In this document: one piece after another, positions 2,464 through 46,433 of the stretch
Numbering within the stretch: position 1 is the stretch's first letter
Layout of the letters: every line of letters begins with the position of its first letter
Source: Candidatus Beckwithbacteria bacterium GW2011_GWC1_49_16
GTDB taxonomy: Bacteria; Patescibacteriota; Microgenomatia; UBA1400; CG1-02-47-37
NCBI GenBank assembly: GCA_001029675.1
Contig: CP011210.1
Location: forward strand, 711,528-775,527
Direction of reading: 5' to 3'
DNA: 64,000 nt
Program-made: the position numbers and the translations under genes
Notes under the pieces: generated by a model
What the model was told of the DNA's origin: nothing
What the model saw: the letters and a program-made list of their open reading frames with translations, nothing else
Database searches by the model: none

Positions 2464-2478
2464 TTTAAATTATCTTAG
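2455..2478. promoter_or_regulatory. perfect 24-bp AT-rich palindrome CTAAGATAATTTAAATTATCTTAG spanning both convergent stop codons
   Basis: self-complementary; related copies at 11986..12010, 12448..12472, 56954..56976. Confidence 0.6.
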
Positions 2479-3373
2479 TGGATGAGGAGAGTTGTTGTTT
2501 CAAAGTAGAAAGGGCTTGGTCGATGGTAGACATGGTGACGCCAAGGTCACGCTTGAGCTTGGCGTTGGATAGCTTAAGATACTGTTGGCGGGGGCGGGTA
2601 TCGGTCTTGGCATAATCCTTAAAACTCCCCTGTTTAATCGTGCCGGGAAGATTAAAAGTAGTTTTAATTTTTTGAGCCAGATCAAAAGGGCTAAGCCCGC
2701 TTGAACCGACAAGGTGGTAGGTGCCGCTGGGTTTCTTGTCAAGAAAAACTTTGAGGGCGGTGGCGATGTCGTCGATAAAAGTCGGGATGATGGTTTGATC
2801 GGCAAACATGGGGTGGAGCGAATCGGTTTTCAGTTTGTCGATGATACTTCTGACCAAATCAAGTTTTGACGCAAAATGGCTTCGGAAAGGAAAGGCGATT
2901 CTGACGATGGCGGCTGGGGCGCCGGATTTTCTGACCGCTTCCTCGGCCATGAGCTTGGTCTGGCCGTACCATTCGATGGGATGGGTGGAGTCTTCTTCGG
3001 TGTACCCGCCAGGGGGCGGGTTTTTGCCGTCAAAAACAAAATCGGTGGAGACGTGGATAAGATAAAGCTTTCTCTCGGCGGCAACTCGAGCAATGTTTTG
3101 GCTGCCGACGACGTTGACCTGGTAAACCAATCCCTCCCTGTCACCTTTTTGCTGTGAAGCTTTAGAAACATCGGTAAAGGCAGCCAGGTGGATTAGGCCG
3201 TGGGCCTCGGGGTGGGCGGAAATGACTCTGTCTACTTGGCTTTTATCGGTAATGTCGATGCCGGTAGCAAGATCAAGGTTGACAAAGTCGTATTGAGAAG
3301 ACAAAAGTTCCACCACCCGGGAACCGACCAGACCGGAAAGGCCGGTGCCCAAGATAAGGGATTTGGCTGCCAT
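2465..3373 (-). CDS. rfbD: dTDP-4-dehydrorhamnose reductase (RmlD)
   Basis: 302 aa, N-terminal Rossmann GxxGxxG (ILGTGLSGLVGS), RmlD-like length; operon with rfbC/rfbB. Confidence 0.8.
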   Translation of the reverse strand: MAAKSLILGTGLSGLVGSRVVELLSSQYDFVNLDLATGIDITDKSQVDRVISAHPEAHGLIHLAAFTDVSKASQQKGDREGLVYQVNVVGSQNIARVAAERKLYLIHVSTDFVFDGKNPPPGGYTEEDSTHPIEWYGQTKLMAEEAVRKSGAPAAIVRIAFPFRSHFASKLDLVRSIIDKLKTDSLHPMFADQTIIPTFIDDIATALKVFLDKKPSGTYHLVGSSGLSPFDLAQKIKTTFNLPGTIKQGSFKDYAKTDTRPRQQYLKLSNAKLKRDLGVTMSTIDQALSTLKQQLSSSTKII

Positions 3374-3377
3374 CGGT

Positions 3378-3917
3378 TTACTCCCTCTTAAGTTGCCAAA
3401 AGTCTTCGCCTAAAAGATCCGAAGGGAGCCTCAACTCGTCGGGGTCTTTGGGGTTGAAGGCTTGGTTGGTGAAGTAAATCACCGAGCACGTCCCTTGCCA
3501 GAGGTTGGCAGCGCCGTGGGCGATGCCGGTGGGAACGTACAAGAGCTGGCTCGCGTGGGCGCCTAAAGTTAAACGCATCACTTGGTCCTTGGTGGGAGAA
3601 TCTTGGCGCAAATCTTTGAGCCCGACTAACAGCCGGTGGCGGGCCGGGACGTACCAAATGTCGTCTTGTTTTAAGTGAAGGTGAAAGGCTTTGACCGCGC
3701 CGGGCTGCATGTTGGAAATGCTAATTTGCCTGACTTCAAACTTAGGAAAGGTTTCCAGCGCGCCGGCTTTGATCCGCCCCAGTTCGGTAAAATCGCCGCC
3801 TTCGTCGTGGTAGAGCTTTAAGTCAATCAACTTGACGCCGTCGATGACCGGTTTGCCGCCGTACTCCTGGACGGTAATTTGGGGGTGGTACTGGGAAGAA
3901 ATGTTATCTAGTTTCAT
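3378..3917 (-). CDS. rfbC: dTDP-4-dehydrorhamnose 3,5-epimerase (RmlC)
   Basis: 179 aa cupin; ...QISISNMQPGAVKAFHLHLKQDDIWYV... matches RmlC core. Confidence 0.85.
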   Translation of the reverse strand: MKLDNISSQYHPQITVQEYGGKPVIDGVKLIDLKLYHDEGGDFTELGRIKAGALETFPKFEVRQISISNMQPGAVKAFHLHLKQDDIWYVPARHRLLVGLKDLRQDSPTKDQVMRLTLGAHASQLLYVPTGIAHGAANLWQGTCSVIYFTNQAFNPKDPDELRLPSDLLGEDFWQLKRE

Positions 3918-3923
3918 AATTTT

Positions 3924-4901
3924 CTATTTTACCATTTTTAAAGGCTGCCACCAGTCCCGATTGTTTCGGTACCAGTCAACGGTTTGTTTTAAGTAAATGT
4001 CAAAGCTGTAGCGGGGTTGGTAGTTTAACTTTCTTTGAGCTTTGGACCAATCCAGCGCATAGCGGCGATCATGAGCTGGGCGGTCTTTGACAAACTCTAT
4101 CTGTGACTCAGGCTCACCCATTATTTTTAAAATCTTTTTGACTACGGTTAGATTGTCCAGGTCTTCGGTCAGGCCGCCGATGCAGTAAGTGGCGCCGGCC
4201 TGACCTTTTTTTAACACCTGTTCGATGGCCCGGCAGTGGTCTTCGACGTAGAGCCAGTCTCTAACGTTTTTGCCGTCGCCGTAGACGGGGACTTTTTTGC
4301 CTTCGATGAGGTTGGTGACTGTTAAGGGAATGAGCTTTTCGGGAAACTGGTAGGGGCCGTAGTTGTTGGAGGTGTTGGTGATGGTGGTTTTTATACCAAA
4401 AGTTTTGTGGTAGGCCCGAATCAAGTGATCGGAAGCCGCCTTGGTGGCGGCATAGGGGCTGTTGGGGCGAAAGTGACTTTTTTCCGAGAATTTTTTGTTC
4501 GACCCCAGCGCCAGCGAGCCGTAGACTTCATCGGTGGAGATATGGTGAAAGTGGCTTAACTGGTGTTTAACGGCGGCAGCCAGTAGCACCTGGGTACCGA
4601 CGACGTTGGTGACCACAAAGACCGCCGGGTTGTCGATGGAGCGGTCGACGTGAGATTCAGCGGCAAAGTGGACGACGATGTCAACCCCGGCCATGGCCTG
4701 GTCGACAACTTTAGGGTCGGCAATATCGCCTTTGACAAACTGGTAGCGGGGGTTGCCCTCGAGCGCCTTGAGGTTGGCAAGATTACCGGCGTAAGTTAAT
4801 TTATCGAGATTAACTATCTGGTCATTAGGATGATTCTTAACCCAGTAGTGGATAAAGTTTGAACCGATAAAGCCAGCGCCACCGGTGACTAAAATTTTCA
4901 T
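3924..4901 (-). CDS. rfbB: dTDP-glucose 4,6-dehydratase (RmlB)
   Basis: 325 aa; MKILVTGGAGFIGSNF..., YAATKAASDHL (YxxxK) SDR-extended motifs. Confidence 0.9.
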   Translation of the reverse strand: MKILVTGGAGFIGSNFIHYWVKNHPNDQIVNLDKLTYAGNLANLKALEGNPRYQFVKGDIADPKVVDQAMAGVDIVVHFAAESHVDRSIDNPAVFVVTNVVGTQVLLAAAVKHQLSHFHHISTDEVYGSLALGSNKKFSEKSHFRPNSPYAATKAASDHLIRAYHKTFGIKTTITNTSNNYGPYQFPEKLIPLTVTNLIEGKKVPVYGDGKNVRDWLYVEDHCRAIEQVLKKGQAGATYCIGGLTEDLDNLTVVKKILKIMGEPESQIEFVKDRPAHDRRYALDWSKAQRKLNYQPRYSFDIYLKQTVDWYRNNRDWWQPLKMVK

Positions 4902-13704: not shown

Positions 13705-14475
13705 TTATTTACCGGGAATGGCGATGCCTTTAACCACTTGCTGGTACTGGTCGCCCAGCTTTTTCTTGGCCCAGTAGCGGTTAGAACGGTAAAGGGAATA
13801 AAAGGTGCCGGCGTCGGACCAGAAGCCGGAAAGCTCGGCCCAGTTTAGCCGGCCCTTTTTAAGGTAAGCGTTGTTGATGTCGGTGACCTCGAGCTCTCCC
13901 CTGCCGGAAGGTTTGAGGGATTTGATGATATCAAAAACGGTAGTGTCGTAGATATACAGGCCGGTGACGGCGTAAGGGGAAACGGCTTTTGGGGGCTTTT
14001 CGTGGATGGTGATTATTTTTTGCGGGTCGTTTTTATCAAACTCCGGATTGCCGAAGCGTTCGGGGTCGGGGACTTTTTTTAAGAAAATGGTAGCGCCCTG
14101 CTTAAAATTCTTGACCGGACTACTAATGTCGGCGTCGGTGGTGTTGTCGCCTAAGATGATGGTGACGGGGCCGTGGTCGGCAAAGTCCTCGGCGTAGCTT
14201 AAAGCGTCGGCGATGCCTTTGGAACCGCCTTCCTGGTAGGCGTACTCTAAATGGTCAAGGCCGAACTGCTTGCCGTTTTTTAAGACGCTGACGAACTGGC
14301 CGGCGTGGATTTCTCCGGCGATGACCAGGATGTTTTTTATGCCGGCTTTGACCAGGGTCTGAATGGGGTAAAAAATCATCGGCTGGTCGTAGACTGGGAG
14401 CAAGTGTTTGTTGGTGGGTAAAGTCAGGGGCTCGAGTCTGGTGCCTTTGCCGCCGGCTAAAATGACGCCTTTCAT
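13705..14475 (-). CDS. rfbA: glucose-1-phosphate thymidylyl/nucleotidyltransferase (RmlA-like, short form)
   Basis: 256 aa; MKGVILAGGKGTRLEPLT...K motif of sugar-nucleotidyltransferases. Confidence 0.75.
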   Translation of the reverse strand: MKGVILAGGKGTRLEPLTLPTNKHLLPVYDQPMIFYPIQTLVKAGIKNILVIAGEIHAGQFVSVLKNGKQFGLDHLEYAYQEGGSKGIADALSYAEDFADHGPVTIILGDNTTDADISSPVKNFKQGATIFLKKVPDPERFGNPEFDKNDPQKIITIHEKPPKAVSPYAVTGLYIYDTTVFDIIKSLKPSGRGELEVTDINNAYLKKGRLNWAELSGFWSDAGTFYSLYRSNRYWAKKKLGDQYQQVVKGIAIPGK

Positions 14476-14488
14476 AACTTTTCCTTTT

Positions 14489-14719
14489 TTAAGCTCGGTA
14501 ACTTATAAAAATTAAGATCGCGGTGCCTAAGAAACTTAAGAATAAATATTCTAGCACAACCAGAAGGTGGAGGCTTTTGTCGGTAAGATGGATGATAATG
14601 CCGTAGAGAAAATAAACCAGGCCGATGACCACGGCGGTAACCAGGCGCAAGTCCGGCAGGGTTAGGTAAACTACTGCCAAGACGGCCAAAATCAGGGCTA
14701 ACCACAGGTTTTGCCTCAT
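14489..14719 (-). CDS. small 2-TM membrane protein
   Basis: 76 aa, hydrophobic; overlaps stop of upstream gene by 4 nt (operon-like). Confidence 0.3.
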   Translation of the reverse strand: MRQNLWLALILAVLAVVYLTLPDLRLVTAVVIGLVYFLYGIIIHLTDKSLHLLVVLEYLFLSFLGTAILIFISYRA

Positions 14720-15642
14720 AGGATCAAGCCTTGTTTAACAAACAAGAGGATCAAAAGTAGTATACCTAAAAAGATAAAGTGAGCCAAACTCTTGCCGGAA
14801 AGGCGGGTGATTTTCTTCCTGGTGATGACAACGGCGTCGATGACGATTAACGCCAAAAGCAGTAAAGTTAAGCTCAATGACATGGCCCGGGTCAATTGAA
14901 ATGAGTTTAAGAAGGGAAAACGGTCATAAAGACCGGCGACCCGGGGTTGGTCGATCAGGGCAACGGTGACCTGCTCGGGGGTGGCGATTTCTTCGGTAGG
15001 CTCGGCCCCGACGCTGGCGATCGGGGTGGCCGTTTCTTCGGCGGCCACTTCGGCCACGGCGACTTGGGCCACTTGAGCCGAAGCCGGGGTACCAAACATT
15101 TGGACGACTAAAGTGGTTTCTTGACCCATGAAGTTGCCGCTGACCACGGCGATGCCGATGTCGTGGTAGCGGGGGGAAACGATGTTGGCTTTATGGGTGG
15201 GCGAGTTCATCCAGGCGGAGACGACCGAACCAGAATCCATAAAATCGCGGGCGAGGTTTTCGCCGGCGTAAAGATAAGAGTAGCCGGAGGCACCAAAAAA
15301 GTACCAAGGGGTAGTGCCGTCGGGTGAAGTGTGCGACCAGTAGTTTTTAGCCATCATGTCGGAGGCTTTTAATGAGGCGGCGTTGGCTAATGCCTGGTTG
15401 ACGGATAGCGTCGGCAATCCCAGCTCGGCGCGTTTGGCGTTGGTAAGATTGACCAAATCGGCCGCGCTGATCGAGGAAGCAATGCCTAAAACTCCAGGGA
15501 CTGCCCGGCCGACCACGGTGATTAACAGCTGGCCGACGATAATCAAGAGCAAAAAAGAGCTTAACGAAGATAGCTGGAGGGCTTTGGCTTTGTAGTTGTT
15601 TGACCCACGCGGGGTAAACAAATGGGCAAGCATTTCACGCAT
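14716..15642 (-). CDS. CAP/SCP/PR1-domain protein with N- and C-terminal TM segments
   Basis: 308 aa; ...YWSHTSPDG...GENLARDF...WMNSPTHKANI... CAP-domain signature blocks. Confidence 0.7.
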   Translation of the reverse strand: MREMLAHLFTPRGSNNYKAKALQLSSLSSFLLLIIVGQLLITVVGRAVPGVLGIASSISAADLVNLTNAKRAELGLPTLSVNQALANAASLKASDMMAKNYWSHTSPDGTTPWYFFGASGYSYLYAGENLARDFMDSGSVVSAWMNSPTHKANIVSPRYHDIGIAVVSGNFMGQETTLVVQMFGTPASAQVAQVAVAEVAAEETATPIASVGAEPTEEIATPEQVTVALIDQPRVAGLYDRFPFLNSFQLTRAMSLSLTLLLLALIVIDAVVITRKKITRLSGKSLAHFIFLGILLLILLFVKQGLIL

Positions 15643-15705
15643 ATGATCATTCTAGATAATGGTCGATTGTTTCACAAGTGGAAAGGCAATAAATATTATG
15701 CTAGC

Positions 15706-17085
15706 ATGGACGAGATGTTGAGACGGGTAACAAATTTGATTCTGGCTTTGATTTTTGGTTTGTTGGTTTCGGTTGTTCCCGCCCACGCTGCCGAAGCCAC
15801 CCAAAGGGTAATTGTTAAATTCAAACCCGCAGTCCCCCAAGTGATCCAAAATCGGCTTAATGACCAGCTTAGGGTGAGGTTAATCGAGTCGCTTTTGACA
15901 GCCAGAACATTCGTGGTAGCCGTCCCGGCAGGTTTAGAAGAAACAGTGGCCAACTTCTATCAAAGGAGCCGGTTGGTAGATTACGCCGAGCCGGACGGTT
16001 TCGCCCAAGCGGTGGAAATCCCCAACGACCCGGAGTTTGCCAACCAGTGGGGCCAGACAAAAATCGAAACGCCCCAAGCTTGGGATACGACTAGCGGCGG
16101 CCCCGGCGTGCAGGTGGCTATTTTAGATACGGGGATTACTGATAATCACACCGATTTAACCGGCAAAGTCGATTCTTGGGTGAACTTTACCGACGCGGCT
16201 TCAAGCTACGACAACAACAGTCACGGCACGCATGTGGCTGGCATCGTGGCGGCAATGACCAACAACAACTTAGGGGTAGCCGGCACCGGCAGGGACAGCC
16301 GACTTCAATCAGTTAAAGTATTGAATGACTCTGGCAGCGGCTATTATTCCTGGGTAGCCAATGGCATTTACTGGGCAGCGGATAACGGCGCCGAGGTGAT
16401 CAACATGAGCTTGGGAGGCACCAGCCGGTCAACGGCTCTGGAACAGGCAGTCAATTACGCCTGGAGCAAAGGAGTAGTCTTGGCGGCGGCGGCGGGCAAC
16501 AACGGCTCAAGTTCAAGACTTTATCCGGCCTATTACGCCAACAACATCGCCGTGGCGGCGACAGACCAAAACGACCGCAAAGCCAGCTGGTCTAACTATG
16601 GCTCGTGGGTGGATGTGGCTGCTCCCGGAGTGAGCATCGTCTCGACTACGCCAGACGAAAATTACGCTTACTACTCGGGTACAAGCATGGCCACGCCGCA
16701 CGTGGCCGGAGTGGCGGCTTTGATCTTTGACGCTTTCCCGGGCTACACCAACCAACAGGTTCGCGACCGCCTCGAGTCAACCGCCGACAATATTTCAGGC
16801 ACCGGCTGGTACTGGCAGTACGGCCGAATCAATGCCGCCACCGCTGTCAGCGGGGCGGCAGCCTCACCCAGCCCCTCGCCGTCACCGTCTCCGAGTCCGT
16901 TACCGTCACCGAGCCCATCCCCGTCTCCCTCACCCAACCCCAGTCCTTCGCCGTCTCCAAGCCCGTCGCCTTCGCCCAGCCCGAGTCCGGTGCCATCACC
17001 ATCATCGTCACCAAGCCCCAGCCCTTCACCGTCTCCGTCACCCTGGTGGTGTATATATGCACCTCGACACCGCCTGTGTCAGTAA
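15706..17085 (+). CDS. subtilisin-like S8 serine protease with C-terminal Pro-Ser linker
   Basis: Asp/His/Ser blocks (DTGI..., HGTHVAGIVAA, GTSMATPHVAG); start moved to the Met preceding the signal peptide (MDEMLRRVTNLILALIFGLLVSVVPAHA); ORF-track start 15622 overlaps divergent gene. Confidence 0.85.
   Translation: MDEMLRRVTNLILALIFGLLVSVVPAHAAEATQRVIVKFKPAVPQVIQNRLNDQLRVRLIESLLTARTFVVAVPAGLEETVANFYQRSRLVDYAEPDGFAQAVEIPNDPEFANQWGQTKIETPQAWDTTSGGPGVQVAILDTGITDNHTDLTGKVDSWVNFTDAASSYDNNSHGTHVAGIVAAMTNNNLGVAGTGRDSRLQSVKVLNDSGSGYYSWVANGIYWAADNGAEVINMSLGGTSRSTALEQAVNYAWSKGVVLAAAAGNNGSSSRLYPAYYANNIAVAATDQNDRKASWSNYGSWVDVAAPGVSIVSTTPDENYAYYSGTSMATPHVAGVAALIFDAFPGYTNQQVRDRLESTADNISGTGWYWQYGRINAATAVSGAAASPSPSPSPSPSPLPSPSPSPSPSPNPSPSPSPSPSPSPSPSPVPSPSSSPSPSPSPSPSPWWCIYAPRHRLCQ
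16861..17040 (+). repeat. (SPSP)n-encoding low-complexity repeat (Pro-Ser linker)
   Basis: ~60 codons of SP dipeptide repeats (agcccgtcgcc-type units) inside the protease gene. Confidence 0.9.
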
Positions 17086-17667: not shown

Positions 17668-18123
17668 ATGGTAAAGAAATTAATTGCAGCAGGTGCCGGC
17701 GCTTTGATGCTGGCTTCCGTCGCCACCCCGGCTTTTGCTTGGCACTGGTGGGGCGGATCTGATGATCTGACCGTCAGCAACCACGCCTGGGTGAAAAATA
17801 CAGTCATCACCACAGCCGATACCGGAGACAACAGTATTCACGGTAAATACGTCTTCGGCGGTGACATTGACACTGGTGACGCGTTAGCTGGAGCTGACGT
17901 GCTCAACCAGGTCAACTACACTGAAGTTGCTGGCTGTGACTGTTTTGATGATGTCACCATCAGAAACCGAGCCGGCGTGAGAAACTTTGTCTACACCTCG
18001 GCCGATACCGGAGACAACAGCATCCACGGAAAACTGGTCTTCGGCGGTGACATTGACACTGGTGACGCGTTAGCTGGAGCCTTCGTCACGAACGTGGTCA
18101 ACACCAACATTGTTGGTGAGTAA
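17668..18123 (+). CDS. secreted protein with two copies of a TGDN/DTGDA repeat
   Basis: 151 aa; signal peptide; internal duplication ADTGDNSIHGK.VFGGDIDTGDALAGA x2; strong SD AAGGGGGTGA. Confidence 0.55.
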   Translation: MVKKLIAAGAGALMLASVATPAFAWHWWGGSDDLTVSNHAWVKNTVITTADTGDNSIHGKYVFGGDIDTGDALAGADVLNQVNYTEVAGCDCFDDVTIRNRAGVRNFVYTSADTGDNSIHGKLVFGGDIDTGDALAGAFVTNVVNTNIVGE

Positions 18124-18195
18124 ACCCTACTTTATTGTCCCGCGAAGGGGGGTAAACGCCTCCCTTCCGGGGCAAGGGTAGAAAGAAGTTTTTAA

Positions 18196-20193
18196 ATGAA
18201 AAAATTATTAGCCATTATCTTAATATTACTTTTGACCGTCGGCCCGATGCTGGGGCCGATGGCGGTTTATGCCGACGAGGCCGTGCCGTCGGCAGAGACC
18301 GAAGAGACGGTCGAACCTGAGTCCTCGCCCGAACCGGAATCATCGACTACAGTTGAAAACGAGGCCGAGGTGACCAACGAGGTCGAATCGACGGCCAATA
18401 CGGGCGAGAACACGATTGAGCAGACAGATCCTTCACCCTCACCTTCCCCTAGCGCAGAGCCTTCCACTGAAGCTACTCCCTCGGCAATCACTACCGGCGA
18501 CTCGGTGGCGGTAACCGAAGTCGAAAATCAAGTCAACTCGACCGAGGTCAACTCCCAAGTGATTCAACTGACCATCAATATTTTCTCTGCCGGGGACGTG
18601 GATTTGTCCGACCCGGCGATAATTCAGCAAATCGCCGAACAGGCGGTAGCAGACAACAGCGGAGAAACGGAAATCAACGTGGTGGCCTTTAGCGTCGACA
18701 ACCTGGCCTATGTGTCTAACGAGATTGTGTCGACAGCCAACACGGGTGACAACACGATTGAGGCAACGGGGTCGGCGGAAATTAACACCGGCGACGCCTA
18801 CAGCGTGGTGTCTTTGTTAAACCAGTTAAATACCACCATCGTCGACTCGACCCTCTACCTGGTGACCATCAACGTTTTCGGCGAGCTTGACGGAAATATT
18901 ATCCTGCCGGAGCTTACCGGCGCCAACAGTTCATCTGGCTGCTGTGACGGTGATACTCAAATCAACAACCAGGCGGTGGTGGAAAACCAGGTAGCAAGTA
19001 ACGCCAACTCCGGCGGCAACGCGGTGGCGGCTCAAGAAGAAGCCGAGATCACCACCGGCGAAGCCACCAGCGTGGTCAATGTAGTCAACATAGTCAACCA
19101 AACCTGGATCAATGTTTTGTTTCATTACTTAGTGGTCAACACCTTTGGCAGCTGGACCGGCAGTTTCCTGGGCTGGGACGACTTTTTGGCTCAAGCGGCG
19201 GGAGATTTAACCTTAACCTCAAGCAGTCAAAATCAGGGAGATGCCGACTGTGATGGCTGTATCGGCGACGTTGATGTTACCAACCAGGCATACCTTTCAA
19301 ACCAAATCAGCTCTTCTGCCAACACGGGCGGGAACCAGGCAAGCGGCAACTCGGGGCAAATTAACAGCGGCAATGCTTACAGCGTGGTATCGCTTTTTAA
19401 CCTGGTCAACACCACTATCTTGCGCTCGACCGGCTTTTTCGGCTTTATTAACATCTTTGGCAACCTGACCGGCAACATCGGCGGGGCGAGTTTGTTTATT
19501 GAAGAAGAAGCAATTGAAGCGACTCCGGAAGAAGACGCAGCCGAAGGTGAAGGCCCGGCTCCCAGAGAAACGGGCGGAGTCCTAGAGGTAAGCCAAGCCC
19601 ACAACGTCGGCGACTATGTTTTGCCCGGCGACACGGTTACCTTTGTGGTGGAAGTGAAAAACCCCGGCGGGGGCACGGTCTATGACCCGGTCTTGACCAT
19701 TGATCTAGTTTCCGGTGGCGAGTTTTTGGGCGGAGCCGAGTTTAATCTTGCCGACATCGGCGCCAAGAAAAAACTAACTATCACCACCGGCTTGGTGCTG
19801 TCGGATCTGGCCCCCTTTGGCGACTATACGGCGGTGGCCACGGTAACAGGCAAGGTCGGCCCCGATGACGAAGAAATCGTCGCTTCGGCCGACAGCTTCT
19901 TTAGCATTTTGGGCTTTACTCCAATTGGGGCTACCGACTTAGTTCCTCCTGCCCAAGCGGCCGAGGAAACAGGAGAAGTTTTGGGGACAACCTCGACTAC
20001 TTTAGGCCTGACCCAGGAGCAGCTGACCCGGCTCTTCTGGATTTTGCTGGTGTTGTATCTTATAGCCAAGGCGGTTGAAGAAAGAGAAAAGCTGGCTTTG
20101 GCCTGGAACAAAAACAAGGGCTTTCTGGTTGACAAGGCTTTAGCTTTGAAGTCACTGTTGATGGCTCTGATCGCTTTGATTAAATCCTCTTGA
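18196..20193 (+). CDS. large cell-surface repeat protein (ANTG-N-I / NTGDAYSVV repeats) with C-terminal TM anchor
   Basis: 665 aa; signal peptide; >=5 copies of S.ANTG(D/E/G)N.I...TG.A(Y/T)SVV..(N/L)..NTT motif; C-terminal ETGEVLG...hydrophobic...K/E-rich tail. Confidence 0.6.
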   Translation: MKKLLAIILILLLTVGPMLGPMAVYADEAVPSAETEETVEPESSPEPESSTTVENEAEVTNEVESTANTGENTIEQTDPSPSPSPSAEPSTEATPSAITTGDSVAVTEVENQVNSTEVNSQVIQLTINIFSAGDVDLSDPAIIQQIAEQAVADNSGETEINVVAFSVDNLAYVSNEIVSTANTGDNTIEATGSAEINTGDAYSVVSLLNQLNTTIVDSTLYLVTINVFGELDGNIILPELTGANSSSGCCDGDTQINNQAVVENQVASNANSGGNAVAAQEEAEITTGEATSVVNVVNIVNQTWINVLFHYLVVNTFGSWTGSFLGWDDFLAQAAGDLTLTSSSQNQGDADCDGCIGDVDVTNQAYLSNQISSSANTGGNQASGNSGQINSGNAYSVVSLFNLVNTTILRSTGFFGFINIFGNLTGNIGGASLFIEEEAIEATPEEDAAEGEGPAPRETGGVLEVSQAHNVGDYVLPGDTVTFVVEVKNPGGGTVYDPVLTIDLVSGGEFLGGAEFNLADIGAKKKLTITTGLVLSDLAPFGDYTAVATVTGKVGPDDEEIVASADSFFSILGFTPIGATDLVPPAQAAEETGEVLGTTSTTLGLTQEQLTRLFWILLVLYLIAKAVEEREKLALAWNKNKGFLVDKALALKSLLMALIALIKSS

Positions 20194-20235
20194 CAATAGG
20201 CTATAGGCTGATATACTAGCCCCCGCTCAATCAAA

Positions 20236-20266
20236 AGTTCCTGCTATATAGAGGAACTTTTTTTTG
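20236..20266 (+). terminator. rho-independent terminator
   Basis: agttcct-gctatatag-aggaact + T8. Confidence 0.6.
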
Positions 20267-20321
20267 GCCAAGGGCCAATCAGCCTTTGGCTGATATAAGC
20301 ACGAAAGGGGGTGAAAAATAA

Positions 20322-21083
20322 ATGAAACTGAAATTAATTATTTTAGGATTGGTTTTGGCGGGAGCGTTTACAGCTGGGGCTATCAAATCCAACACTAATC
20401 GTTCTGCTTATGCTTGCGGTGGCGATTGTAATGGGGACCACGAAGATGAAGTGACTATCTGTCAATGTAGGGTAAGGGAAGATGTGCTTCAGTGTCGCAC
20501 TATTGAAGTTGACGAGGAAGATGTTGAGGATATTTTTGAGGCATACCCACGCTCTTACCTTGGAGCATGCACGTCACCATCCCCCAGCCCTTCTCCATCA
20601 CCGGAGCCAAGCGAAGAACCTTCGCCTAGTCCATCGCCGAGCCCAACTCCGGAAACAGAAGTCGGTTTAGGAGTTAACGGCCCGTCATGTACCAGCAACA
20701 GCTTTAGCGCCAACATCTCTGTTTTGGTAGGGGGTGTGGGTCAAGAAGGAGTTGAAGTCAAGTTCAACTACCAGGACCAAGAAAAAAGCGCCACCACCAA
20801 CGACAAAGGTGAGGCCAGCGTCGACTTTGAATTCAAAGGCAATGGTGAAGTCAAAGCCACTTCTGCCGGTTACCCGGAGCAGAAAGCTGGTGTCGAAGCC
20901 GTCAGGGAAGATTGTCCCAGCACGGGAGGCACAGGCGAAGTCCTGGGAGCAGCTACCGGTGGACAAGTCCTAGGTGCTATGGCCGATACCGGTGACCCGG
21001 TAACCGATCTCATGTTAGTATTATTTACCATGGGATCAACCCTCGCGGGAACCGGATTGAGGCTGTATAGCAAGAAAAGCTAG
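20322..21083 (+). CDS. secreted Cys-rich/PS-linker protein with prealbumin-like C-domain and sorting-signal-like C-terminus
   Basis: 253 aa; signal peptide, Cys-containing N-domain, SPSP linker, C-terminal 125 aa identical to paralog 21202..22113, then ...GTGEVLG...AMADTG + TM + KKS. Confidence 0.6.
   Translation: MKLKLIILGLVLAGAFTAGAIKSNTNRSAYACGGDCNGDHEDEVTICQCRVREDVLQCRTIEVDEEDVEDIFEAYPRSYLGACTSPSPSPSPSPEPSEEPSPSPSPSPTPETEVGLGVNGPSCTSNSFSANISVLVGGVGQEGVEVKFNYQDQEKSATTNDKGEASVDFEFKGNGEVKATSAGYPEQKAGVEAVREDCPSTGGTGEVLGAATGGQVLGAMADTGDPVTDLMLVLFTMGSTLAGTGLRLYSKKS
20622..20992 (+). repeat. 371-bp perfect direct repeat, copy 1
   Basis: identical to 21640..22010 (offset 1018 bp) by direct inspection. 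Confidence 0.9.
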
Positions 21084-21201
21084 CGGATAGGATAAGAATT
21101 GGACAGAGATCGCCCTGCCCCAGAAACTGGGGCAGGGCTAAGGTTGACAAACTAGAATTATCTGTTAAACTACCGAAAAGCCTGTCACAAAGGCGTTTTT
21201 T

Positions 21202-22113
21202 ATGAAAAAGATTTTTGCTTTAATCTTCCTAATAACCATTTCCCTATTTTTAGGGTCTAGGATGCGCGTATTGGCCCAACAACAGCTGGTGACTATTTGT
21301 CACGCTACCAGTAGCCAGACTAATCCCTATGTCCAAATTACTGCCGCTTACCCAGCTATTTATGGACCAGCTGGTCACTTCAGCGAACCCGGCACTACCA
21401 ATGCCGGCCATGAAGAAGATTACGAAGGACCCTGCACTTGTGAAGATCTACCAGCTAACTGCCCTAGCCCTTCACCAAGCCCGTCTCCGTCACCAAGTCA
21501 TTCACCCTCGCCATCTCCATCTCCTAGCCCGAGTCCGTCGCCATCTCCCAGCCCATCGGTATCTCCTTCACCATCGCCCAGCCCCTCACCATCGCCGAGT
21601 CCGGAAGTTTCTCCCAGCCCAAGCCCAAGGGTGAGCCCGTCGCCTAGTCCATCGCCGAGCCCAACTCCGGAAACAGAAGTCGGTTTAGGAGTTAACGGCC
21701 CGTCATGTACCAGCAACAGCTTTAGCGCCAACATCTCTGTTTTGGTAGGGGGTGTGGGTCAAGAAGGAGTTGAAGTCAAGTTCAACTACCAGGACCAAGA
21801 AAAAAGCGCCACCACCAACGACAAAGGTGAGGCCAGCGTCGACTTTGAATTCAAAGGCAATGGTGAAGTCAAAGCCACTTCTGCCGGTTACCCGGAGCAG
21901 AAAGCTGGTGTCGAAGCCGTCAGGGAAGATTGTCCCAGCACGGGAGGCACAGGCGAAGTCCTGGGAGCAGCTACCGGTGGACAAGTCCTAGGTGCTATGG
22001 CCGATACCGGAACCGCTGTCGAGAGTGCATTTCAGTTAATTTTCAGCCTGGGAGCATTAATGCTAGGATGGGGTATCGGGATTTATGCCAAAAAAGAAAA
22101 CTTGGTGGAATAA
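21202..22113 (+). CDS. paralogous secreted Cys-rich/PS-linker protein with sorting-signal-like C-terminus
   Basis: 303 aa; different N-domain, long SPSP linker, identical C-domain, ...AMADTG + TM + KKENLVE. Confidence 0.6.
21640..22010 (+). repeat. 371-bp perfect direct repeat, copy 2
   Basis: identical to 20622..20992. Confidence 0.9.
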
Positions 22114-22690
22114 AAAACTTAAGTTCGGACAGAAATTTTGGCGGGGTTTTACCAGGCAACAAAAACACGGCATTTATTTAATCTTTAGCGGCGTCTTACT
22201 GGTATTGGTTTTTGCCAGCTGGAGGTGGCACGAGTCAAGAATTTTGGCTTTTAACCGGCAGTTTGAAGTGGTGGAGACAAGCGGGGTGGCTCCAGTAGCA
22301 ATCAAGATCCCTAAGGTAAATATTGATTTGGCGGTGACAGAGGCGACGATTACCGACAATACCTGGGAGATATCGGCAACCGGCGCCAGTCACTGGGACA
22401 ACTCTGCCAATCCGGGCGAGGGCGGCAACATTGTCATTTACGGCCACAACAAAACCAATCTTTTCGGACCAATCAGGTGGGTCAGCCCGGGCGAAATCAT
22501 TGAAGTAACCGGCGCCGACGGTAAAGTTTATGAGTATAAAATTACGGAAACAGTGATTACCGAACCCAACGACGTGGCCTATGTTTTACCTAAAGACAAA
22601 GAAACCCTGACCCTTTATACCTGCACCGGGCTGTTTGACAGTAAGCGCTATATCGTGGTGGCCGAGCCTTACAACGAACCCCTAAACTGA
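22085..22690 (+). CDS. sortase (transpeptidase), membrane-anchored
   Basis: 201 aa; N-terminal TM; catalytic His (NIVIYGHN) and TLxTC Cys (TLTLYTCTG) plus Arg (KRYIVVAEP). Confidence 0.8.
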
Positions 22691-39091: not shown

Positions 39092-39166
39092 GGCCCCATC
39101 GTCTAACGGTTAGGACGCAAGGTTCTCAACCTTGTAATCCGGGTTCGATTCCCGGTGGGGTCACCA
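39092..39166 (+). tRNA. tRNA-Glu (anticodon CTC)
   Basis: cloverleaf folded by hand: acceptor GGCCCCA/TGGGGTC, D-stem GTCT/GGAC, anticodon stem CAAGG/CCTTG, loop TTCTCAA, T-stem CCGGG/CCCGG with TTCGATT loop, encoded CCA. Confidence 0.85.
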
Positions 39167-40661
39167 TTTTGGAAATGGCAGCAGAATTGGGGGCAGCGCT
39201 GGCTGCGCCCCCCTCCGCAGACAGCGCTGCAAAGGGATATTTTAAGTCCGGCCGGAGGTGCCGATTAAATAAAGAATAGTTCGAGCCGACAGTTTTTGCC
39301 ATGATTGCCAAATCATGGCACTCATTTTTTGCGCGCGCGATTTTTTGCGCCTGCAAGGCGCTAATTACGAATTCCCTCATAAGTTCGAGCCAAGAAGAAC
39401 CACTTTTTGAAACTCTGGCAATTTGCTCCGCAATTTTTAACTTCTCGTCAAATAGTTCGTTTTTCTTTTGTTTATAAACTTCCGGTTCCACTACTTGATC
39501 TAAATAGCCATCCAATAAACGGTTTAATTTTGTTTCAATTTCTTTTTGGTTCTCGCCAAGCCTTTGTAATTCCGTTTCAGAATTTGCCTGATCTTTTAAT
39601 TCGTCTGCCGCCATCCACTTTTCAAAATATGGCTCCCAATCTTGGTGCAAGCCGCAATCACCCACAACTTTTTTTAGTTGTTGCTCAATTTCATCTTCGG
39701 GAGCATATTTTTGCAAACAAGGTTTCAGCTTTTTAGTACAGCGATAATAGATAAAAGTTTGCGAAGTTCCATTTTTATACTTTTTAATATGTTGTTCGGC
39801 GGTGATTGCGGCGCCGCACTCGCCACAAGTGGCTAAACCGGAAAAAGCAAAATCATGGCCATGTTGTCGTGGACGTAAGATTTTTTCCACTTGCTTTTGT
39901 ACTTCCTTAAATAGTTGTTTGGAGATGAAGCATTTGTGGGAACCCTCGTAATATTCGTTAGCATATTTTAAAATCCCCACATAAAACTTGTTTGATAACA
40001 TTCGCTTTATTTGGTCAACTTTAATAGGTTTCCCACAACTTTCCCGATTCATCCCAAACCTAAAACAAAAGTTTGAAATTTCCGTAAAAGATTTATTGCC
40101 TTCGGCAAAAAGTTGAAAAGCTTTTTTAACAACTTTAGAAAGTTCGGGGTCAACATCAACGGCTCTGGTTTTAGGATTATTAATGTAACCATAAGGCGCT
40201 TTACTCGGCCACTCACCACGCCGAAGTTTTTGCCGATTGCCCCGTTTTACATTTTCCGATAAATTATCCACATAATATTTTGACTGGCCGAAGGCAATTG
40301 ATAACATAAATTTTCCTTGGGGAGTATTTTCAAACCAAAAAGACGGAAATTTCAAATCCAAAAGTTTTCCGGTATCCAGTAAATAGATTACTTTCCCGCC
40401 ATCAACTGAATTTCTAGCCAATCTGTCTGGATGCCAGGAAATTATGCCCTGCGCTTCGCCTTTCTCAATTTTCTTCAACACTAGCGCAAATTGCTCACGA
40501 CCTGGCATTTTGGCGGTTTTGGCTTCGGTAATAAATTCAGTTATTTCTAAATGGTCACGTTTGGCAAATTCTTTTAATTCTGCAATTTGCGCTTCAATAG
40601 ATAAAACTTGTTTATCTTTTTCATCAGTTGATTTTCGGCAATATGCTATGTATTTATTCAT
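39126..40661 (-). CDS. large serine recombinase (resolvase N-domain + recombinase domain + Zn ribbon)
   Basis: 511 aa; catalytic N-domain YCRKSTDEKDKQVLSIEAQ..., long C-terminal recombinase/coiled-coil region with Cys cluster (CGECGAA...C); 3' end overlaps tRNA-Glu antisense. Confidence 0.9.
   Translation of the reverse strand: MNKYIAYCRKSTDEKDKQVLSIEAQIAELKEFAKRDHLEITEFITEAKTAKMPGREQFALVLKKIEKGEAQGIISWHPDRLARNSVDGGKVIYLLDTGKLLDLKFPSFWFENTPQGKFMLSIAFGQSKYYVDNLSENVKRGNRQKLRRGEWPSKAPYGYINNPKTRAVDVDPELSKVVKKAFQLFAEGNKSFTEISNFCFRFGMNRESCGKPIKVDQIKRMLSNKFYVGILKYANEYYEGSHKCFISKQLFKEVQKQVEKILRPRQHGHDFAFSGLATCGECGAAITAEQHIKKYKNGTSQTFIYYRCTKKLKPCLQKYAPEDEIEQQLKKVVGDCGLHQDWEPYFEKWMAADELKDQANSETELQRLGENQKEIETKLNRLLDGYLDQVVEPEVYKQKKNELFDEKLKIAEQIARVSKSGSSWLELMREFVISALQAQKIARAKNECHDLAIMAKTVGSNYSLFNRHLRPDLKYPFAALSAEGGAASAAPNSAAISKMVTPPGIEPGLQG
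39161..39262. repeat. inverted repeat IR-A (~95-100 bp), left boundary of recombinase segment; begins in tRNA 3' end TCACCA
   Basis: reverse complement of 40767..40870 with 1-2 mismatches, compared by hand. Confidence 0.85.
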
Positions 40662-40766
40662 ACTTTGCTTTTGTACTCTTGTAACATATTGTAACTTGTT
40701 CTTTTAAAAAGTTCTTTAAATATCTACCTTATTAATTTTTGCGTTTTTTCTTCTGTTCTTTTTTTA

Positions 40767-40870
40767 CGGCAACTCCGACCGGACTTAAAATATCCCTTTG
40801 CAGCGCTGTCTGCGGAGGGGGGCGCAGCCAGCGCTGCCCCCAATTCTGCTGCCATTTCCAAAATGGTGAG
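40767..40870. repeat. inverted repeat IR-B, partner of IR-A
   Basis: ...ggcagcgctggctgcgcccccctccgcagacagcgctgcaaagggatattttaagtccgg... in opposite orientation. Confidence 0.85.
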
Positions 40871-40996
40871 CGTTTACGAAAAAATTCGAACCTTTTTTAA
40901 AAATTGTTAACGCATTGCGTCAGCTCCTCGCTCGCCTTCGGCTCGCTTCGTCGCTATTCGCGTTCTGCGCGGCGCCCCCACCCGCCGCGCCTCCGA
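40865..40996. repeat. inverted repeat IR-C (~131 bp), left boundary of cargo segment
   Basis: reverse complement of 48364..48495 essentially identical. Confidence 0.85.
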
Positions 40997-41316
40997 AAAC
41001 TGTCGGCTCGAATCCTAAAGAAAAAACGCAAAAATTTTAAAGAACTTTTTCAATGTCCTATAACTTAAATGGCCGTTCTGGTTGTACTCAACTCGGATTG
41101 CTCCAAATTGTCCAAAACGGCCATTAAAAAAAGCAATCCGAAAAAAGTTGAGTACAATTAAAATATACAAAGTTTCAACATCAAAAACAAGAGTCTCTTG
41201 CATTTGTTTTTTAGCGTGGTATTTGATATAAATATCATAGTACAATAAATCTAGATTTTCGATGATTAAAGTATGATATGCTTAAAGAAAATGCTGTCAA
41301 AATTGGGAGCGCCAAC

Positions 41317-41335
41317 GAGAGAGAGAGAGAGAGAG
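41317..41335 (+). repeat. (GA)9G dinucleotide tract
   Basis: gagagagagagagagagag between an upstream ATG (41273/41291, frame 2) and the in-frame signal peptide of the giant ORF (frame 0). Confidence 0.9.
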
Positions 41336-41636
41336 TAAACGGCTTCGCCGTTTTGTAACAACTTTCCTTCTAATTTTATCTTTACTTCTTCAAAATTTTT
41401 TATTCCTTATTAATCCTGTCTACGCCGCAACTAATTCTTGGGATTTTTCAACTTCGTCTAATTACACTTATGATGATACAAAAATTGAATTTTCTTCGGG
41501 TCAAGCGCAACTAAAAGCAACTTCAAATTGGTACAACACTTCATGGTCAAGGCGTAAAGCAATTACAGTTACAGGTTCTACGGCGGGTGCACAAACAAAT
41601 TATCAACTTAAACTTACAGTACCTTATGATTCGGAC

Positions 41637-44600
41637 ATGCAAGCAGATTTTGATGATATAAGGTTTACATCTTCTGATGGGACTACTTTAATTGATCACT
41701 GGCTAGAGTCGAAAACGGATTCAACTACTGCTGACTTTTGGGTAGAGATTCCATCAATTCCAGCCTCTCCAAATACCACAATGATATACATATATTACGG
41801 AAATTCCAGTGCGAGCAGTGCTTCAAATGGAGACAACACATTTCTTCTTTTTGATAATTTTGATGGGGTATCTATGGATGGCTTTTCTCGGGTAAGCCAA
41901 CAAACACTTTTTTCTGGAAGTGGAAGTGAAGATTGGTTAGGGAGAACTGTTTTTGTTGATGATGGATCGAAGTGGGTATTGGTTTATAGACAAGCTGCTA
42001 ATCATTGCTGTGATACTGCAGCAGTCATGCATATTCGGTTTTCGACAAATGAAGGTGCTTCATGGACAAATGCTGATACATTTACGAATGGCTCGGCTGT
42101 TACTGGAGCACCCTTCAGTCGACACTCAACAAATGCCGTTGCTGATCCTGTCCTTATGAAAGCACCAAACGGCGACTTGCTACTTCATGTAGGAGAGGTG
42201 AACAGCGGAGGAAATCCTATGGGTGCATACCAATATCGTAGCACTGATGGTGGCGCAACATGGACTGACGAAGGTTTAATAAACAATGACACTGAGATAT
42301 ATAGCGGCCAGGATTATACAACTGTAGATAATGATCTCTATGCTATCTTTTGGAAAGATGCAGGATCGGATGGTGCTCCTTACCAAACCTTACTTTATAA
42401 ATCAACTGACAACGGAATAACATGGGCACTAGTGAGCCCGATAACAACAAGCGGTACTGATGAAGGGGGGATTGAATACGTTGGAAGTAATACATTGCTG
42501 GTTGTTCTTAGGGACACGCCAGCAAGCAAAACTTATCAGAGAATTTCAACAGACTTAGGACAAACATGGGGTACACAAACAGATATTTCATCTTCGGTTG
42601 GAGTATTGCAGCGACCAAGAATGAGAATATTTTCTGATGAGCCTAACAGAGTGTATCTATATGGACGTGATCAATTGGCTGGAAATGACTATACGGTTCT
42701 TTACTACACTGATAATAATGGTTCAACATGGAGTTTAAAATTTTATCCAGATACAACATCATATGCGGATACCGGCTATTCAGATGTTTTAAAACAGACA
42801 GACGGTGATTTTTATATGCTTTCTTATGGAGGAACTAGTGGTACATCAAGTATTAAAGAATACATTTTCAATAAGAGCGCGACATTACAAATAGATACAA
42901 CAAAGTGGACAACTGATAATGCTACTACGTCAATTTCTAACTCCCAGTTAACATATCAAGAAACAGATACAAATATTACGTGGGGCGTCGTTAAATCAGT
43001 AAATTCAGTTTCTCGCCCATTTATTGCTGAAATTGACTATACGTTAACAAGCGGTGAATATGCACATTTTATGTACGGACCTAATCCTGATTCTGCTCAA
43101 TCTACTGCGAATGGTTATGTTTGGTGGATCGACATTAATGACCCAACAAACCCAATGCAGGACTTGACCAGAGTTGAAGACGGCACTTTTAATGACATTC
43201 AACGCAATGTTCAAGTTTCCCCGGATATTGCCAATAACGAAACTTTTAATCAAAAATTTATATTTCATAGCACTGGAGAAACGGCTTTAACAAACGGGAC
43301 ACAATATATTTCGGGAAGCGATACAACCTATTCGTCGGGAAAAATAGCATTAGGAACTGATAGTGGATCAGTTGTAAAAGTAAATACAATTAAAGTCCGC
43401 GTGTATGCAAATCCCGAACCCACAAGCTCAATAGGCTCAGAAGCTACTTTGTATGATACTTCTAACCCTACAGTACAACCAACTTCTGCAAACTCACTGA
43501 CTTTTGTATCATTATCTGCGTTTTCAGAAACAGCGACAAAAAATGGAGGACAAATTAAGTACCAGGTTTCTAATGATAGTGGCACCACTTGGTGCTGGTA
43601 CAGCTCTGGATGGACAACAACGAGTTCCGGTTATTCAGAATCCAACACTGCGAGTGATGTTAATACAAATATTTCTACGTTTCCCGTCGGAAGCGGATCG
43701 TTTTTATTCAAAGCTTATCTGAATTCTGATGGTTCTCAACTTGTTCAACTTGATGCCATAGGGGTAACTTATGTAGCCGACAATACGCCGCCATCTATTT
43801 CTTTAACGGCACTGAGTCCTGATCCAAATACTGACACCACACCTACTCTTTCCGGGACAGCCACAGACACTCAAGGGACAGTGTCTAATGTCCAGTTTCA
43901 AATGGACTCAACTTCCGGTTCGTGGACTGCTTGTACTGCAGGTGATGGAAGTTTTGATGAGACAACGGAAACTTTTACCTGTACTCCTTCGGCATTATCT
44001 GACGGAAGTCATACTATGTATGTCCGTGCAACAGATAGTAACAGCAACACGACTTCTAATGCCAATGCGTCCACCGATAGTTTTACGATTGATATTACTA
44101 CTCCCGCCTCTTTTGATTTAGATTCGCCCGGAGATAATTCGTATACTAATTCCGAAAGACCAACTTTTAAGTGGAAAGCGACAACAGATGCAACCGCCGG
44201 ACTTTCTAAATATGTTTTGGAAATAGACAATCCTTCGATCGGCTCTGGCCAACCTTCTGGTGACTTCACTATTGATAGTATTCCCACCAGTAGAACAACT
44301 GATTACGAAACAAATAAATATACCATCCATTACGAAAACTTCTCGGATTCTGATTCCACAAATAATTATATTTCTGTCTATACCAAATCACACAATGATT
44401 GGGGTTCATCTGAAAATGACGGAAAACTTAGAGAAGGAAAAGTAAGTTGGAAAGTAAAAGCAGTTGATAATGCCGGTAATGAAAGATCTTCTTCTCGAAC
44501 TATGTTTATGGACAAGACTTCCCCATCTGTAGTATTCACTCAAATAAACAGTACGCCTTACACAACTAATAATTTCTTGACCACAGATAAAACACCAACT

Positions 44601-45725: not shown

Positions 45726-45727
45726 AT

Positions 45728-46057
45728 ATGGATAAAATTAATTTAAACAAAGATCAAAAGTTAGTTGTGGACTCTTTCTATAAAGTTAGGACCAAGAAAG
45801 GTTTAAACAGTTTTATTGAGGATTTATTTTCACCGGAAGAAACATTAGATTTAGCCCAACGACTAAAAATCGCTAAGTTAATTCTTGACGGAAAAACTTA
45901 CGAAGAAATTGCGGCAGAAATTCCTGTCAGTACCTCAACCATTTCAAAAATAGGCCAAGTAATTAAATTCGGAAAAGGTGGTTTTATTCTCTTGCAGAAT
46001 AATACAAAAGCACAAAAAGCTAAAAAGCAAAACGGAAAGGAGGTATCAAAAATATGA
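45728..46057 (+). CDS. TrpR/YerC-like HTH protein
   Basis: 109 aa; ...SPEETLDLAQRLKIAKLILDGKTYEEIAAEIPVSTSTISK... Confidence 0.5.
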   Translation: MDKINLNKDQKLVVDSFYKVRTKKGLNSFIEDLFSPEETLDLAQRLKIAKLILDGKTYEEIAAEIPVSTSTISKIGQVIKFGKGGFILLQNNTKAQKAKKQNGKEVSKI

Positions 46058-46428
46058 TTAACTTAGAATTTCAAATTTATCATTTACTAACAGGGCTTGC
46101 CGGAGGATTAGTTCGTGGATTAGTTGGAATAATGAAACAAACCCAGAAACCGGACGAGTTTAAAATTCATTGGAAATATTTTGGTTTAACCATGTTAGTT
46201 TCAGGAGTTGTTGGGGTAGTGTCAGGAATTATTGCTGATGGCGATTGGAGAATATCGTTACTTGCCGGATACGCTGGCACTGATTTTCTGGAAAGTCTTT
46301 ACAGATTAAGATTCCCTCAAATGTTCAGTATTGCTCAAACCGTTAAAACGGTAACAGAAGAAAGTAACACCGGAAAAGTAACAACACAAACAACTACGCC
46401 AGTAACAGCACCAGTAGTGACAAAATAA
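46054..46428 (+). CDS. small 2-TM membrane protein (holin-like topology)
   Basis: 124 aa; two TM helices, Thr/Val-rich tail. Confidence 0.35.
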   Translation: MINLEFQIYHLLTGLAGGLVRGLVGIMKQTQKPDEFKIHWKYFGLTMLVSGVVGVVSGIIADGDWRISLLAGYAGTDFLESLYRLRFPQMFSIAQTVKTVTEESNTGKVTTQTTTPVTAPVVTK

Positions 46429-46433
46429 AAAAA

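Follow-up and report, generated by a model that had tools for sequence, protein, structure and literature searches.

A sortase locus of Candidatus Beckwithbacteria with two candidate substrates and a predicted [L/M/Y]-A-x-T-G sorting signal

Which proteins does a sortase of the candidate phyla radiation (CPR) attach to the cell surface, and by which signal are they recognized? Most bacteria of the CPR (Patescibacteria) have not been cultured, and little is understood of their envelopes and of the surfaces by which they attach to hosts. The question is raised by positions 17668-22690 of the window, by which we mean the whole 64 kb stretch of a Candidatus Beckwithbacteria genome (Microgenomates, CPR) that was analyzed. 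Five co-directional genes lie there, encoding protein A (151 aa), protein B (665 aa), protein C (253 aa), protein D (303 aa) and a sortase (201 aa). A, B, C and D each start with a hydrophobic, signal-peptide-like segment. A preliminary description of this DNA had seen no LPXTG, and indeed the literal motif is absent from all proteins of the locus. For comparison, 80 related Patescibacteria loci were fetched with a sortase profile and their open reading frames (ORFs) were called by script.

The sortase and its catalytic residues are located as follows.

22085..22690, + strand: sortase, 201 aa (Pfam PF04203, H/C/R triad)
22169-22222 (aa 29-46), + strand: N-terminal membrane anchor of the sortase (sequence)
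22430-22450 (aa 116-122), + strand: IVIYGHN with catalytic H121 (invariant in homologs)
22604-22630 (aa 174-182), + strand: TLTLYTCTG with C180 (invariant in homologs)
22643-22660, + strand: KRYIVV with R188 (invariant in homologs)

The enzyme has the domain of the sortase superfamily (MEROPS C60). PF04203 matched with E=2.9e-27 (95.3 bits, cut-off 26.6), and the generic NCBIfam sortase model TIGR01076 was passed as well (51.8 bits vs 39.35). Conservation was read from 25 diverse homologs. H121, C180 and R188 are kept in all 25 and align with the GH motif, the TC motif and the next Arg of the solved structures 4d70 and 2kw8. The His in IVIYGHN and the Cys in TLTLYTCTG had been named in the preliminary description and were both found; the Arg/His/Cys triad, on which it had let the assignment depend, is complete in the sequence alignment. 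A protein of Candidatus Beckwithbacteria GW2011_GWB1_47_15 matches the window sortase with 100% identity.

None of the NCBIfam sortase class models, with class cut-offs of 140-166 bits, was passed by the window sortase. The class D models NF033746 and NF058671 gave 53.3 bits (cut-off 165) and 54.7 bits (cut-off 140). Scores for the other classes were 45.6 bits for class E (NF033747, cut-off 160), 42.5 bits for class F, 40 bits for class C (cut-off 160) and 46 bits for class GN (TIGR03784, cut-off 158). Of the solved structures, 4d70 (C. perfringens SrtD, E=1.8e-16) and 2kw8 (B. anthracis SrtA) came closest, and the class E structures 5go5 and 5go6 matched at just ~6e-4.

The candidate substrates of this enzyme are D, which is encoded directly upstream, and its paralog C. 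Their features are given here.

21202..22113, + strand: substrate D, 303 aa (sequence, AlphaFold 2 (AF2) model)
21952-21975, + strand: GEVLGAAT, first copy of the VLG box in D (sequence)
21979-21996, + strand: GQVLGA, second copy of the VLG box in D (sequence)
21997-22011, + strand: MADTG, predicted sorting motif of D (sequence)
22027-22086, + strand: transmembrane (TM) helix of D, then basic tail AKKENLVE (sequence)
20322..21083, + strand: substrate C, 253 aa, paralog of D (sequence)
20934-20957 and 20961-20978, + strand: GEVLGAAT and GQVLGA, VLG box copies of C
20979-20993, + strand: MADTG, predicted sorting motif of C (sequence)
21009-21059, + strand: TM helix of C, then tail RLYSKKS (sequence)

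We predict that the real sorting motif of C and D is MADTG, one form of [L/M/Y]-A-x-T-G, and comparison with the related loci supports this, as the motif recurs there far more often than by chance. MADTG has the same form as the class E signal LAXTG and is one residue off LPXTG. A loose pattern, [LMYIVF][AGS]xTG at 20-45 aa from the C-terminus of the ORF upstream of the sortase, was found in the upstream same-strand neighbours of 64 of the 77 sortase ORFs in the 80 loci. The invariance of T and G among these 64 motifs is built into the definition of the pattern. P3 is Ala in 58 of them, and P4 is L (35), M (15) or Y (12). Their consensus reads G-Q-V-L-G-A-S-T-[L/M/Y]-A-x-T-G-x-x-[ED]-[DE], followed by a TM helix and then KK. 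About half of the 13 upstream ORFs without the loose pattern hold degenerate forms (VLGLSxTSG, TMAGAG, ILAAAG). Thus the alignment of C-termini across homologous loci, a check named in the preliminary description, brought out a conserved pentapeptide upstream of the TM helix, and the idea of a dedicated sortase-substrate locus is borne out by the position of the motif-bearing ORF directly upstream of the sortase in the same 64 cases. Substrate and sortase genes usually overlap by 13-58 nt across related loci; in the window, D and the sortase are the sole overlapping pair of the locus (29 nt).

A stricter pattern, [LMYF][AP]xTG, was positive in 55 of 73 sortase-adjacent ORFs vs 11 of 973 other ORFs, and 7 of those 11 are plausible substrates themselves. 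The D family was searched exhaustively against 1.84 billion cluster representatives. Full-length D as query was swamped by Pro/Ser low-complexity matches; therefore the immunoglobulin (Ig)-like domain of D together with the signal was used, and 169 relatives were found. Among the best 150 of these 169 (representatives at 50% identity), 126 carry [LYMF]-A-x-T-G, and 22-40 residues follow the motif. All 126 have Ala at P3, and 105 have a VLG at most 4 aa upstream of the motif. This strict pattern took the place of a looser regular expression that had matched GxAG and GxSG within TM helices.

This VLG box, G-Q-V-L-G-A-S/T-T, directly abuts the [L/M/Y]AxTG motif and is present twice in C and D. 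The Beckwithbacteria clade has the form GEVLGA(S/T)T...GQVLGA-MA[DEGP]TG, which is the exact arrangement of the window. The preliminary description had listed AMADTG and TGEVLG as shared elements before the TM helix. Both are present, but the pentapeptide is MADTG, and TGEVLG is an extra copy of the duplicated VLGA(S/T)T box. The lineage-specific non-LPXTG signal proposed there therefore keeps its lineage-specific component in the VLG box, but it is not a new kind of signal, as its core is the family-wide [L/M/Y]-A-x-T-G. In large proteins of two loci (L047, L018), LP[AG]TG replaces [L/M/Y]AxTG at the same position after VLG[AI]ST. Since these proteins carry VLG[AI]ST-x-LP[GA]TG, LPxTG and LAxTG share one slot. 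The tails of C and D gave no match at E<=0.1 to any NCBIfam LPXTG-anchor model (TIGR01167), and motif, TM helix and basic tail are present by inspection.

One D-like protein from a JGI metagenome (P0242, 239 aa) reads GEVLGAATG followed directly by TAVESAF. A stretch of 11 residues is missing, and G-A-A-T-G of the first box is the sole xAxTG left. A natural deletion between the two box repeats could explain this variant, and so could an error of assembly.

The structure of the substrates was examined with an AF2 model of D. The protein consists of a signal peptide, a small N-terminal domain, a Pro/Ser linker, an Ig-like beta-sandwich (aa ~158-237, between C169 and C244) and the signal. Across the family, the N-terminal domain varies and is followed by a Pro/Ser linker, a conserved Ig-like domain (~95 aa, flanked by two Cys) and the signal. 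In the family alignment (A3), C244, A267 and G270 are invariant, and V262, L263, G264, A265 and T269 are at least 90% conserved. The model shows a seven-strand beta-sandwich with a predicted local distance difference test score (pLDDT) of 92-98, a stretch below 50 at aa 252-267, and a helix from aa 271 to 301 that runs to the C-terminus. The disordered stretch ends in the motif, right before the C-terminal helix. As modelled, the geometry of the D tail is as expected of a cell-wall sorting signal.

C has the same Ig-like domain as D and a Cys-rich N-terminal domain unlike that of D; the two N-terminal domains are completely different. A stretch of 300 nt is 100% identical in both genes (20619-20918 = 21637-21936) and spans the last part of the Pro/Ser linker as well as the larger part of the Ig-like domain. 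This points to a duplication or a gene conversion of recent date, accompanied by domain swapping. A fold search with D returned generic Ig-like matches only (best E=0.013), and no specific adhesin or pilin family was found. In Pfam and NCBIfam scans, A, B, C and D gave nothing above threshold. PF27998, which is precomputed for some weak matches of the D search, was not found in Pfam scans of P0260 and of the N-terminal part of D. An N-terminal module of the type V-T-I-C-H-A-T-S-S-x-x-N-P-Y ... A-G-H ... G-H-E-D (window 21286-21333, D aa 29-44) recurs in many D-family proteins of the A3 alignment. It had no Pfam match, and metal binding by its His/Cys pattern is speculation.

Ala at P3 is the residue that class E enzymes accept, and the window sortase was compared with this class. 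Y229 of SrtE1, in the beta3/beta4 loop of class E, has been proposed to read Ala at P3 and has been equated with F92 of C. perfringens SrtD (CpSrtD) (Kattke et al. 2016, PMC5148588). By sequence alignment only, F92 of CpSrtD aligns with residue 104, which is W in the window sortase; among the 25 homologs, 15 have L, 10 have W and none has Y. The His-to-Cys spacing is 59 residues in the window sortase; by the numbering in PMC5148588 it is 69 for SrtE1 and 61 for B. anthracis SrtA. Judged by these residue numbers, the short spacing would speak against a long beta6/beta7 insertion. Because the hidden Markov model (HMM) test and the tyrosine test both fail, the sortase is not a class E member. Ala at P3 is apparently accepted here by a sortase that does not belong to class E and lacks its tyrosine. 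Covariation of enzyme and substrate was also calculated, as mutual information between sortase columns and substrate P4 (L/M/Y) over 64 pairs. It was discarded as evidence because the signal is confounded by phylogeny: the top sortase columns merely follow one clade, the Y-type group.

Taken together, we consider it likely that this is a housekeeping-type sortase locus, with C and D as proteins to be linked to the cell wall. Both would be exported by the Sec pathway and held in the membrane by their C-terminal helix and basic tail. The membrane-anchored sortase (H121, C180, R188) would then cut M-A-D-T-G between T and G by the thiol of C180 and transfer the product to an amine acceptor, most probably a peptidoglycan precursor. 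The result would be an Ig-like domain on a Pro/Ser stalk at the cell surface. The predicted recognition sequence is V-L-G-A-(S/T-T)-[L/M/Y]-A-x-T-G, that is a LAXTG-type core with a lineage-specific VLG box upstream, and one enzyme may serve both LAxTG and LPxTG proteins.

The window also holds dTDP-rhamnose rmlA/B/C/D-like genes and a D-Ala-D-Ala ligase gene (2465-4901, 13705-14475, 51924-52961). It therefore seems that the organism can build the stem peptides of peptidoglycan as well as a polymer that contains rhamnose, and the ligase makes a peptidoglycan acceptor plausible.

Several points weigh against the proposal of wall-linked C and D. The cleavage site and the acceptor are placed by analogy with characterized sortases. 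The closest solved relative, C. perfringens SrtD, was reported to leave LAETG uncleaved (Kattke et al. 2016, PMC5148588). As the class E tyrosine is missing, the specificity for Ala must rest on other determinants. Our view covers 64 kb of the genome, and further sortases or substrates are possible. Finally, a near-invariant VLG box also occurs in the family of protein B, which has no TG motif. The box is more conserved than a spacer requires, and the model may thus miss a component.

The last point was followed in proteins B and A, which have the following features.

18196..20193, + strand: protein B, 665 aa (sequence, AF2 model)
aa 67, 181, 270 and 375 of B, + strand: four repeats ANTGxN...TGxAxSVV...NxxNTT (beta-rich modules)
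aa ~464-571 of B, + strand: CARDB-like Ig domain (AF2, fold match)
19972-19992, + strand: VLG box GEVLGTT of B, in a disordered linker (sequence)
20032-20067 (aa 613-624), + strand: TM helix of B (sequence, AF2)
20068-20190, + strand: conserved 41-aa helical tail of B (sequence, AF2)
17668..18123, + strand: protein A, 151 aa, with signal peptide and two B-type repeats (ADTGDN at aa 50 and 112), without membrane anchor (sequence)

A peptide of protein B reads ETGEVLGTTSTTLGLTQ. The AF2 model of B has a mean pLDDT of 76, with ~85-93 in the repeat modules, which are followed by the Ig domain, the disordered linker, the TM helix and the helical tail. In structure searches the Ig domain alone was matched. 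The family has more than 280 homologs, and among those listed none had a functional name or a domain-family Pfam match. Of 80 B homologs, 73 have a [VIT]LG box, with a median distance of 17 aa to the TM helix that follows, and none has [LMYF][AP]xTG; B of the window has no xAxTG motif either. B keeps the VLG box yet never has the TG motif and is therefore probably not a canonical sortase substrate. Its own TM helix probably serves as its membrane anchor, without processing by the sortase. The preliminary description had counted three substrates, and this number has to be reduced to a probable two, C and D. Likewise, its C-terminal helix with a Lys-rich tail was confirmed for C and D, whereas the TM helix of B is followed by the conserved helical tail. 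The repeat it had reported for the upstream proteins was recovered, with four copies in B and two in A. The surface-fibre or S-layer-like system it proposed is, for A and B, a conjecture. A, which contains a 168-nt direct repeat of 78% identity, is a secreted paralog of the B repeat module. Members of the A/B family lie within 5 kb of the sortase in 17 loci, window included. Pairs of A-like and B-like genes stand beside the sortase in at least six other loci (L003, L046, L038, L070, L076 and L011), and L005 has a B-like gene there.

These data bear on the reading in which the primary lineage-specific signal for recognition or processing is the VLG box and not xAxTG. The box would be a tag close to the membrane, which an exosite of the sortase would read, or another factor such as the S8 protease or the CAP protein described below. 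D-type and B-type proteins would then be marked for a common fate, be it localization, shedding or wall association. The box at a fixed distance from the TM helix of B homologs is what such a tag would look like, and its distribution across the loci fits as well: 75% of LAxTG proteins have it within their last 90 aa, compared with 26% of other proteins with signal peptide and C-terminal TM helix and 4-9% of the remaining proteins. Several copies were seen in large surface proteins of L030, L048, L047 and L070. In the D family, V262, L263, G264 and A265 are conserved as strongly as the TG core; however, P3 Ala in all motif-bearing D-family representatives, which form an independent set, speaks for the core itself as a signal. 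The distance of this core from the TM helix and its basic tail are exactly those of a sortase signal, LPxTG can stand in for it, and some substrate clades keep LAxTG with a merely degenerate box (VAGIS, VQGATT). An S8 protease is encoded in the window and adjoins the sortase in four other loci, but S8 and CAP genes do so in a minority of loci. We therefore regard the box as the primary signal as unlikely. A related reading is also rather doubtful: x-V-L-G-[A/T/I]-[S/T]-T, placed ~17-25 residues outside the membrane, may be a separate CPR-specific sorting or processing signal that serves in docking to the sortase or another enzyme, or in wall association. If true, the VLG signal would be a second layer of surface-protein targeting beyond the LPXTG paradigm.

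It is quite improbable that the sortase is instead a pilus-type (class C-like) polymerase, which would join C and D as pilins head to tail into a covalent fibre and not anchor them to the wall as monomers. Such an enzyme would agree with a single small Ig-like substrate directly upstream of, and overlapping, the sortase across the lineage, with two paralogous subunits in the locus, and with the conserved Cys pair that flanks the Ig-like domain. However, each subunit has one Ig-like domain, and alignment A3 revealed neither an invariant Lys nor a YPKN-like pilin motif, its invariant positions being C244, A267 and G270 only. The enzyme itself falls far short of the class C model (40 bits vs 160), and by our reading of the sequence no DP[WFY] lid motif is seen between the membrane anchor and H121.

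That an ordinary LAXTG system with a class E sortase was acquired from Actinobacteria is hardly credible: the substrate core [L/M/Y]-A-x-T-G with its strict P3 Ala resembles that of class E (Kattke et al. 2016, PMC5148588), but the class E model scores 45.6 bits vs 160, below the class D models, 5go5/5go6 match at E ~6e-4 vs 1.8e-16 for 4d70, the tyrosine position is L or W in 25/25 homologs, and the family is reported to be near-ubiquitous in Microgenomates (Meheust et al. 2019, PMC6744442), which argues for vertical inheritance.

We return to the layout of the locus and its surroundings. The operon-like run of four secreted proteins and a sortase in the preliminary description is correct in its signal peptides and gene order. 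The locus may comprise two or three co-directional units, as promoter-like sites precede A, C and D in a promoter scan, which is weak evidence. The neighbouring genes with a possible relation to the sortase are two.

15622..17085, + strand: S8 subtilisin-like protease, secreted, with Pro/Ser-rich C-terminus (Pfam Peptidase_S8, E=1.3e-58)
14716..15642, - strand: CAP-domain protein with hydrophobic helices in the C-terminal region (Pfam CAP, E=1.7e-19)

Homologs of the S8 protease adjoin the sortase in L076, L011, L022 and L070, and the protease is possibly an accessory neighbour of the locus. CAP-domain homologs were counted in 15 loci at ~8 kb or less from the sortase. As CAP/SCP-domain neighbours of the sortase they recur in 12-15 of the 80 loci (among them L007, L008, L010, L025, L046 and L056), and they lie directly downstream in several. 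In six loci TasA/camelysin-like ORFs with an 'AFFSDTETS'-type N-terminus were found within ~3 kb of the sortase, e.g. in L002 (10971-11846, - strand). This N-terminus is presumably the kind of signal peptide linked to SipW. Many loci, such as L003, L004 and L007-L011, come from MAGs labelled 'uncultured Gammaproteobacteria' or 'uncultured Pseudomonadales' yet have sortase, substrate and neighbours of the Microgenomates type. These labels are probably taxonomic mislabels of Patescibacteria bins.

Further away, the region 39092-48000 looks like an island integrated at a tRNA gene. A tRNA-Glu(CTC) gene (39092-39166) is overlapped by the gene of a large serine recombinase (39126-40661, - strand) with Resolvase, Recombinase and Zn_ribbon_recom domains. 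The stretch that follows has a GC content of 0.36-0.42 vs ~0.50 elsewhere and encodes a 1362-aa surface protein with DUF2341, BNR, Big_13 and fn3 domains (41637-45725, + strand).

How much of this system was known before? A CPR sortase family, fam000526, has been reported from more than half of CPR genomes, and in Microgenomates it was described as near-ubiquitous (Meheust et al. 2019, Nat Commun, PMC6744442). That paper gives the distribution of the enzyme only; substrates, sorting motif and gene neighbourhood are not described there. The window sortase, set beside this family by its description, is probably a member. Queries of the searchable literature with the motif strings, and with sortase plus CPR, Microgenomates, Patescibacteria or Saccharibacteria, turned up no account of these substrates or of the VLG box. 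A preprint on the CPR 'Pam' pilus concerns donor-strand-exchange pili, not sortase. The presence of the enzyme was thus known, and for the candidate anchored proteins and their signal no earlier account was found. The window and the 80 loci point to a cognate substrate family, the small Ig-like protein encoded directly upstream of the sortase. The signal VLGA(S/T)T-[LMY]AxTG with TM helix and basic tail is searchable, is missed by the standard LPXTG model and would allow prediction of surface proteomes. Ala at P3 without the class E tyrosine is of interest for sortase specificity and for the engineering of orthogonal sortases. The role of the VLG box, common to candidate substrates and to membrane proteins that are probably no substrates, is the puzzle of the locus and a concrete, testable question.

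Three known systems come close to the one described here. Like the class GN 'marine' sortase (TIGR03784), the window sortase is encoded beside one cognate substrate gene, and the pair is kept across a lineage outside the classical Gram-positives. In contrast, it scores 46 bits vs 158 with that model, and the substrate family is a different one. Moreover, the window-type system is not strictly single-target, because further proteins in the same genomes share the signal (L018, L047, L061). Class D, with C. perfringens SrtD (4d70) and B. anthracis SrtD/SrtC (PDB 2ln7), is nearest by sequence, gives the best class-model scores, and has a compact catalytic domain with the same arrangement of H, C and R. 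However, the window sortase reaches ~54 bits against cut-offs of 140-165. Class D signals are LPNTA or LPQTGS.

Class E is represented by Streptomyces SrtE1/SrtE2 with the chaplins and by enzymes of Corynebacterium and Bifidobacterium. Shared with this class are Ala and not Pro at P3, followed by T-G, TM helix and basic tail, an apparent housekeeping role, and an enzyme anchored in the membrane by its N-terminus. In contrast to class E, the window sortase fails the class E HMM, has W or L in place of the conserved Tyr and a His-Cys spacing of 59 vs 69 residues in SrtE1. Met or Tyr is frequent at P4 in the window family, the host belongs to the CPR, and the VLGA(S/T)T box stands directly upstream of the core; to our knowledge, no such box is known in class E substrates. 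In summary, the locus would function in the manner of a class E housekeeping system (LAXTG), with an enzyme that is not class E and a signal with an extra, lineage-specific box.

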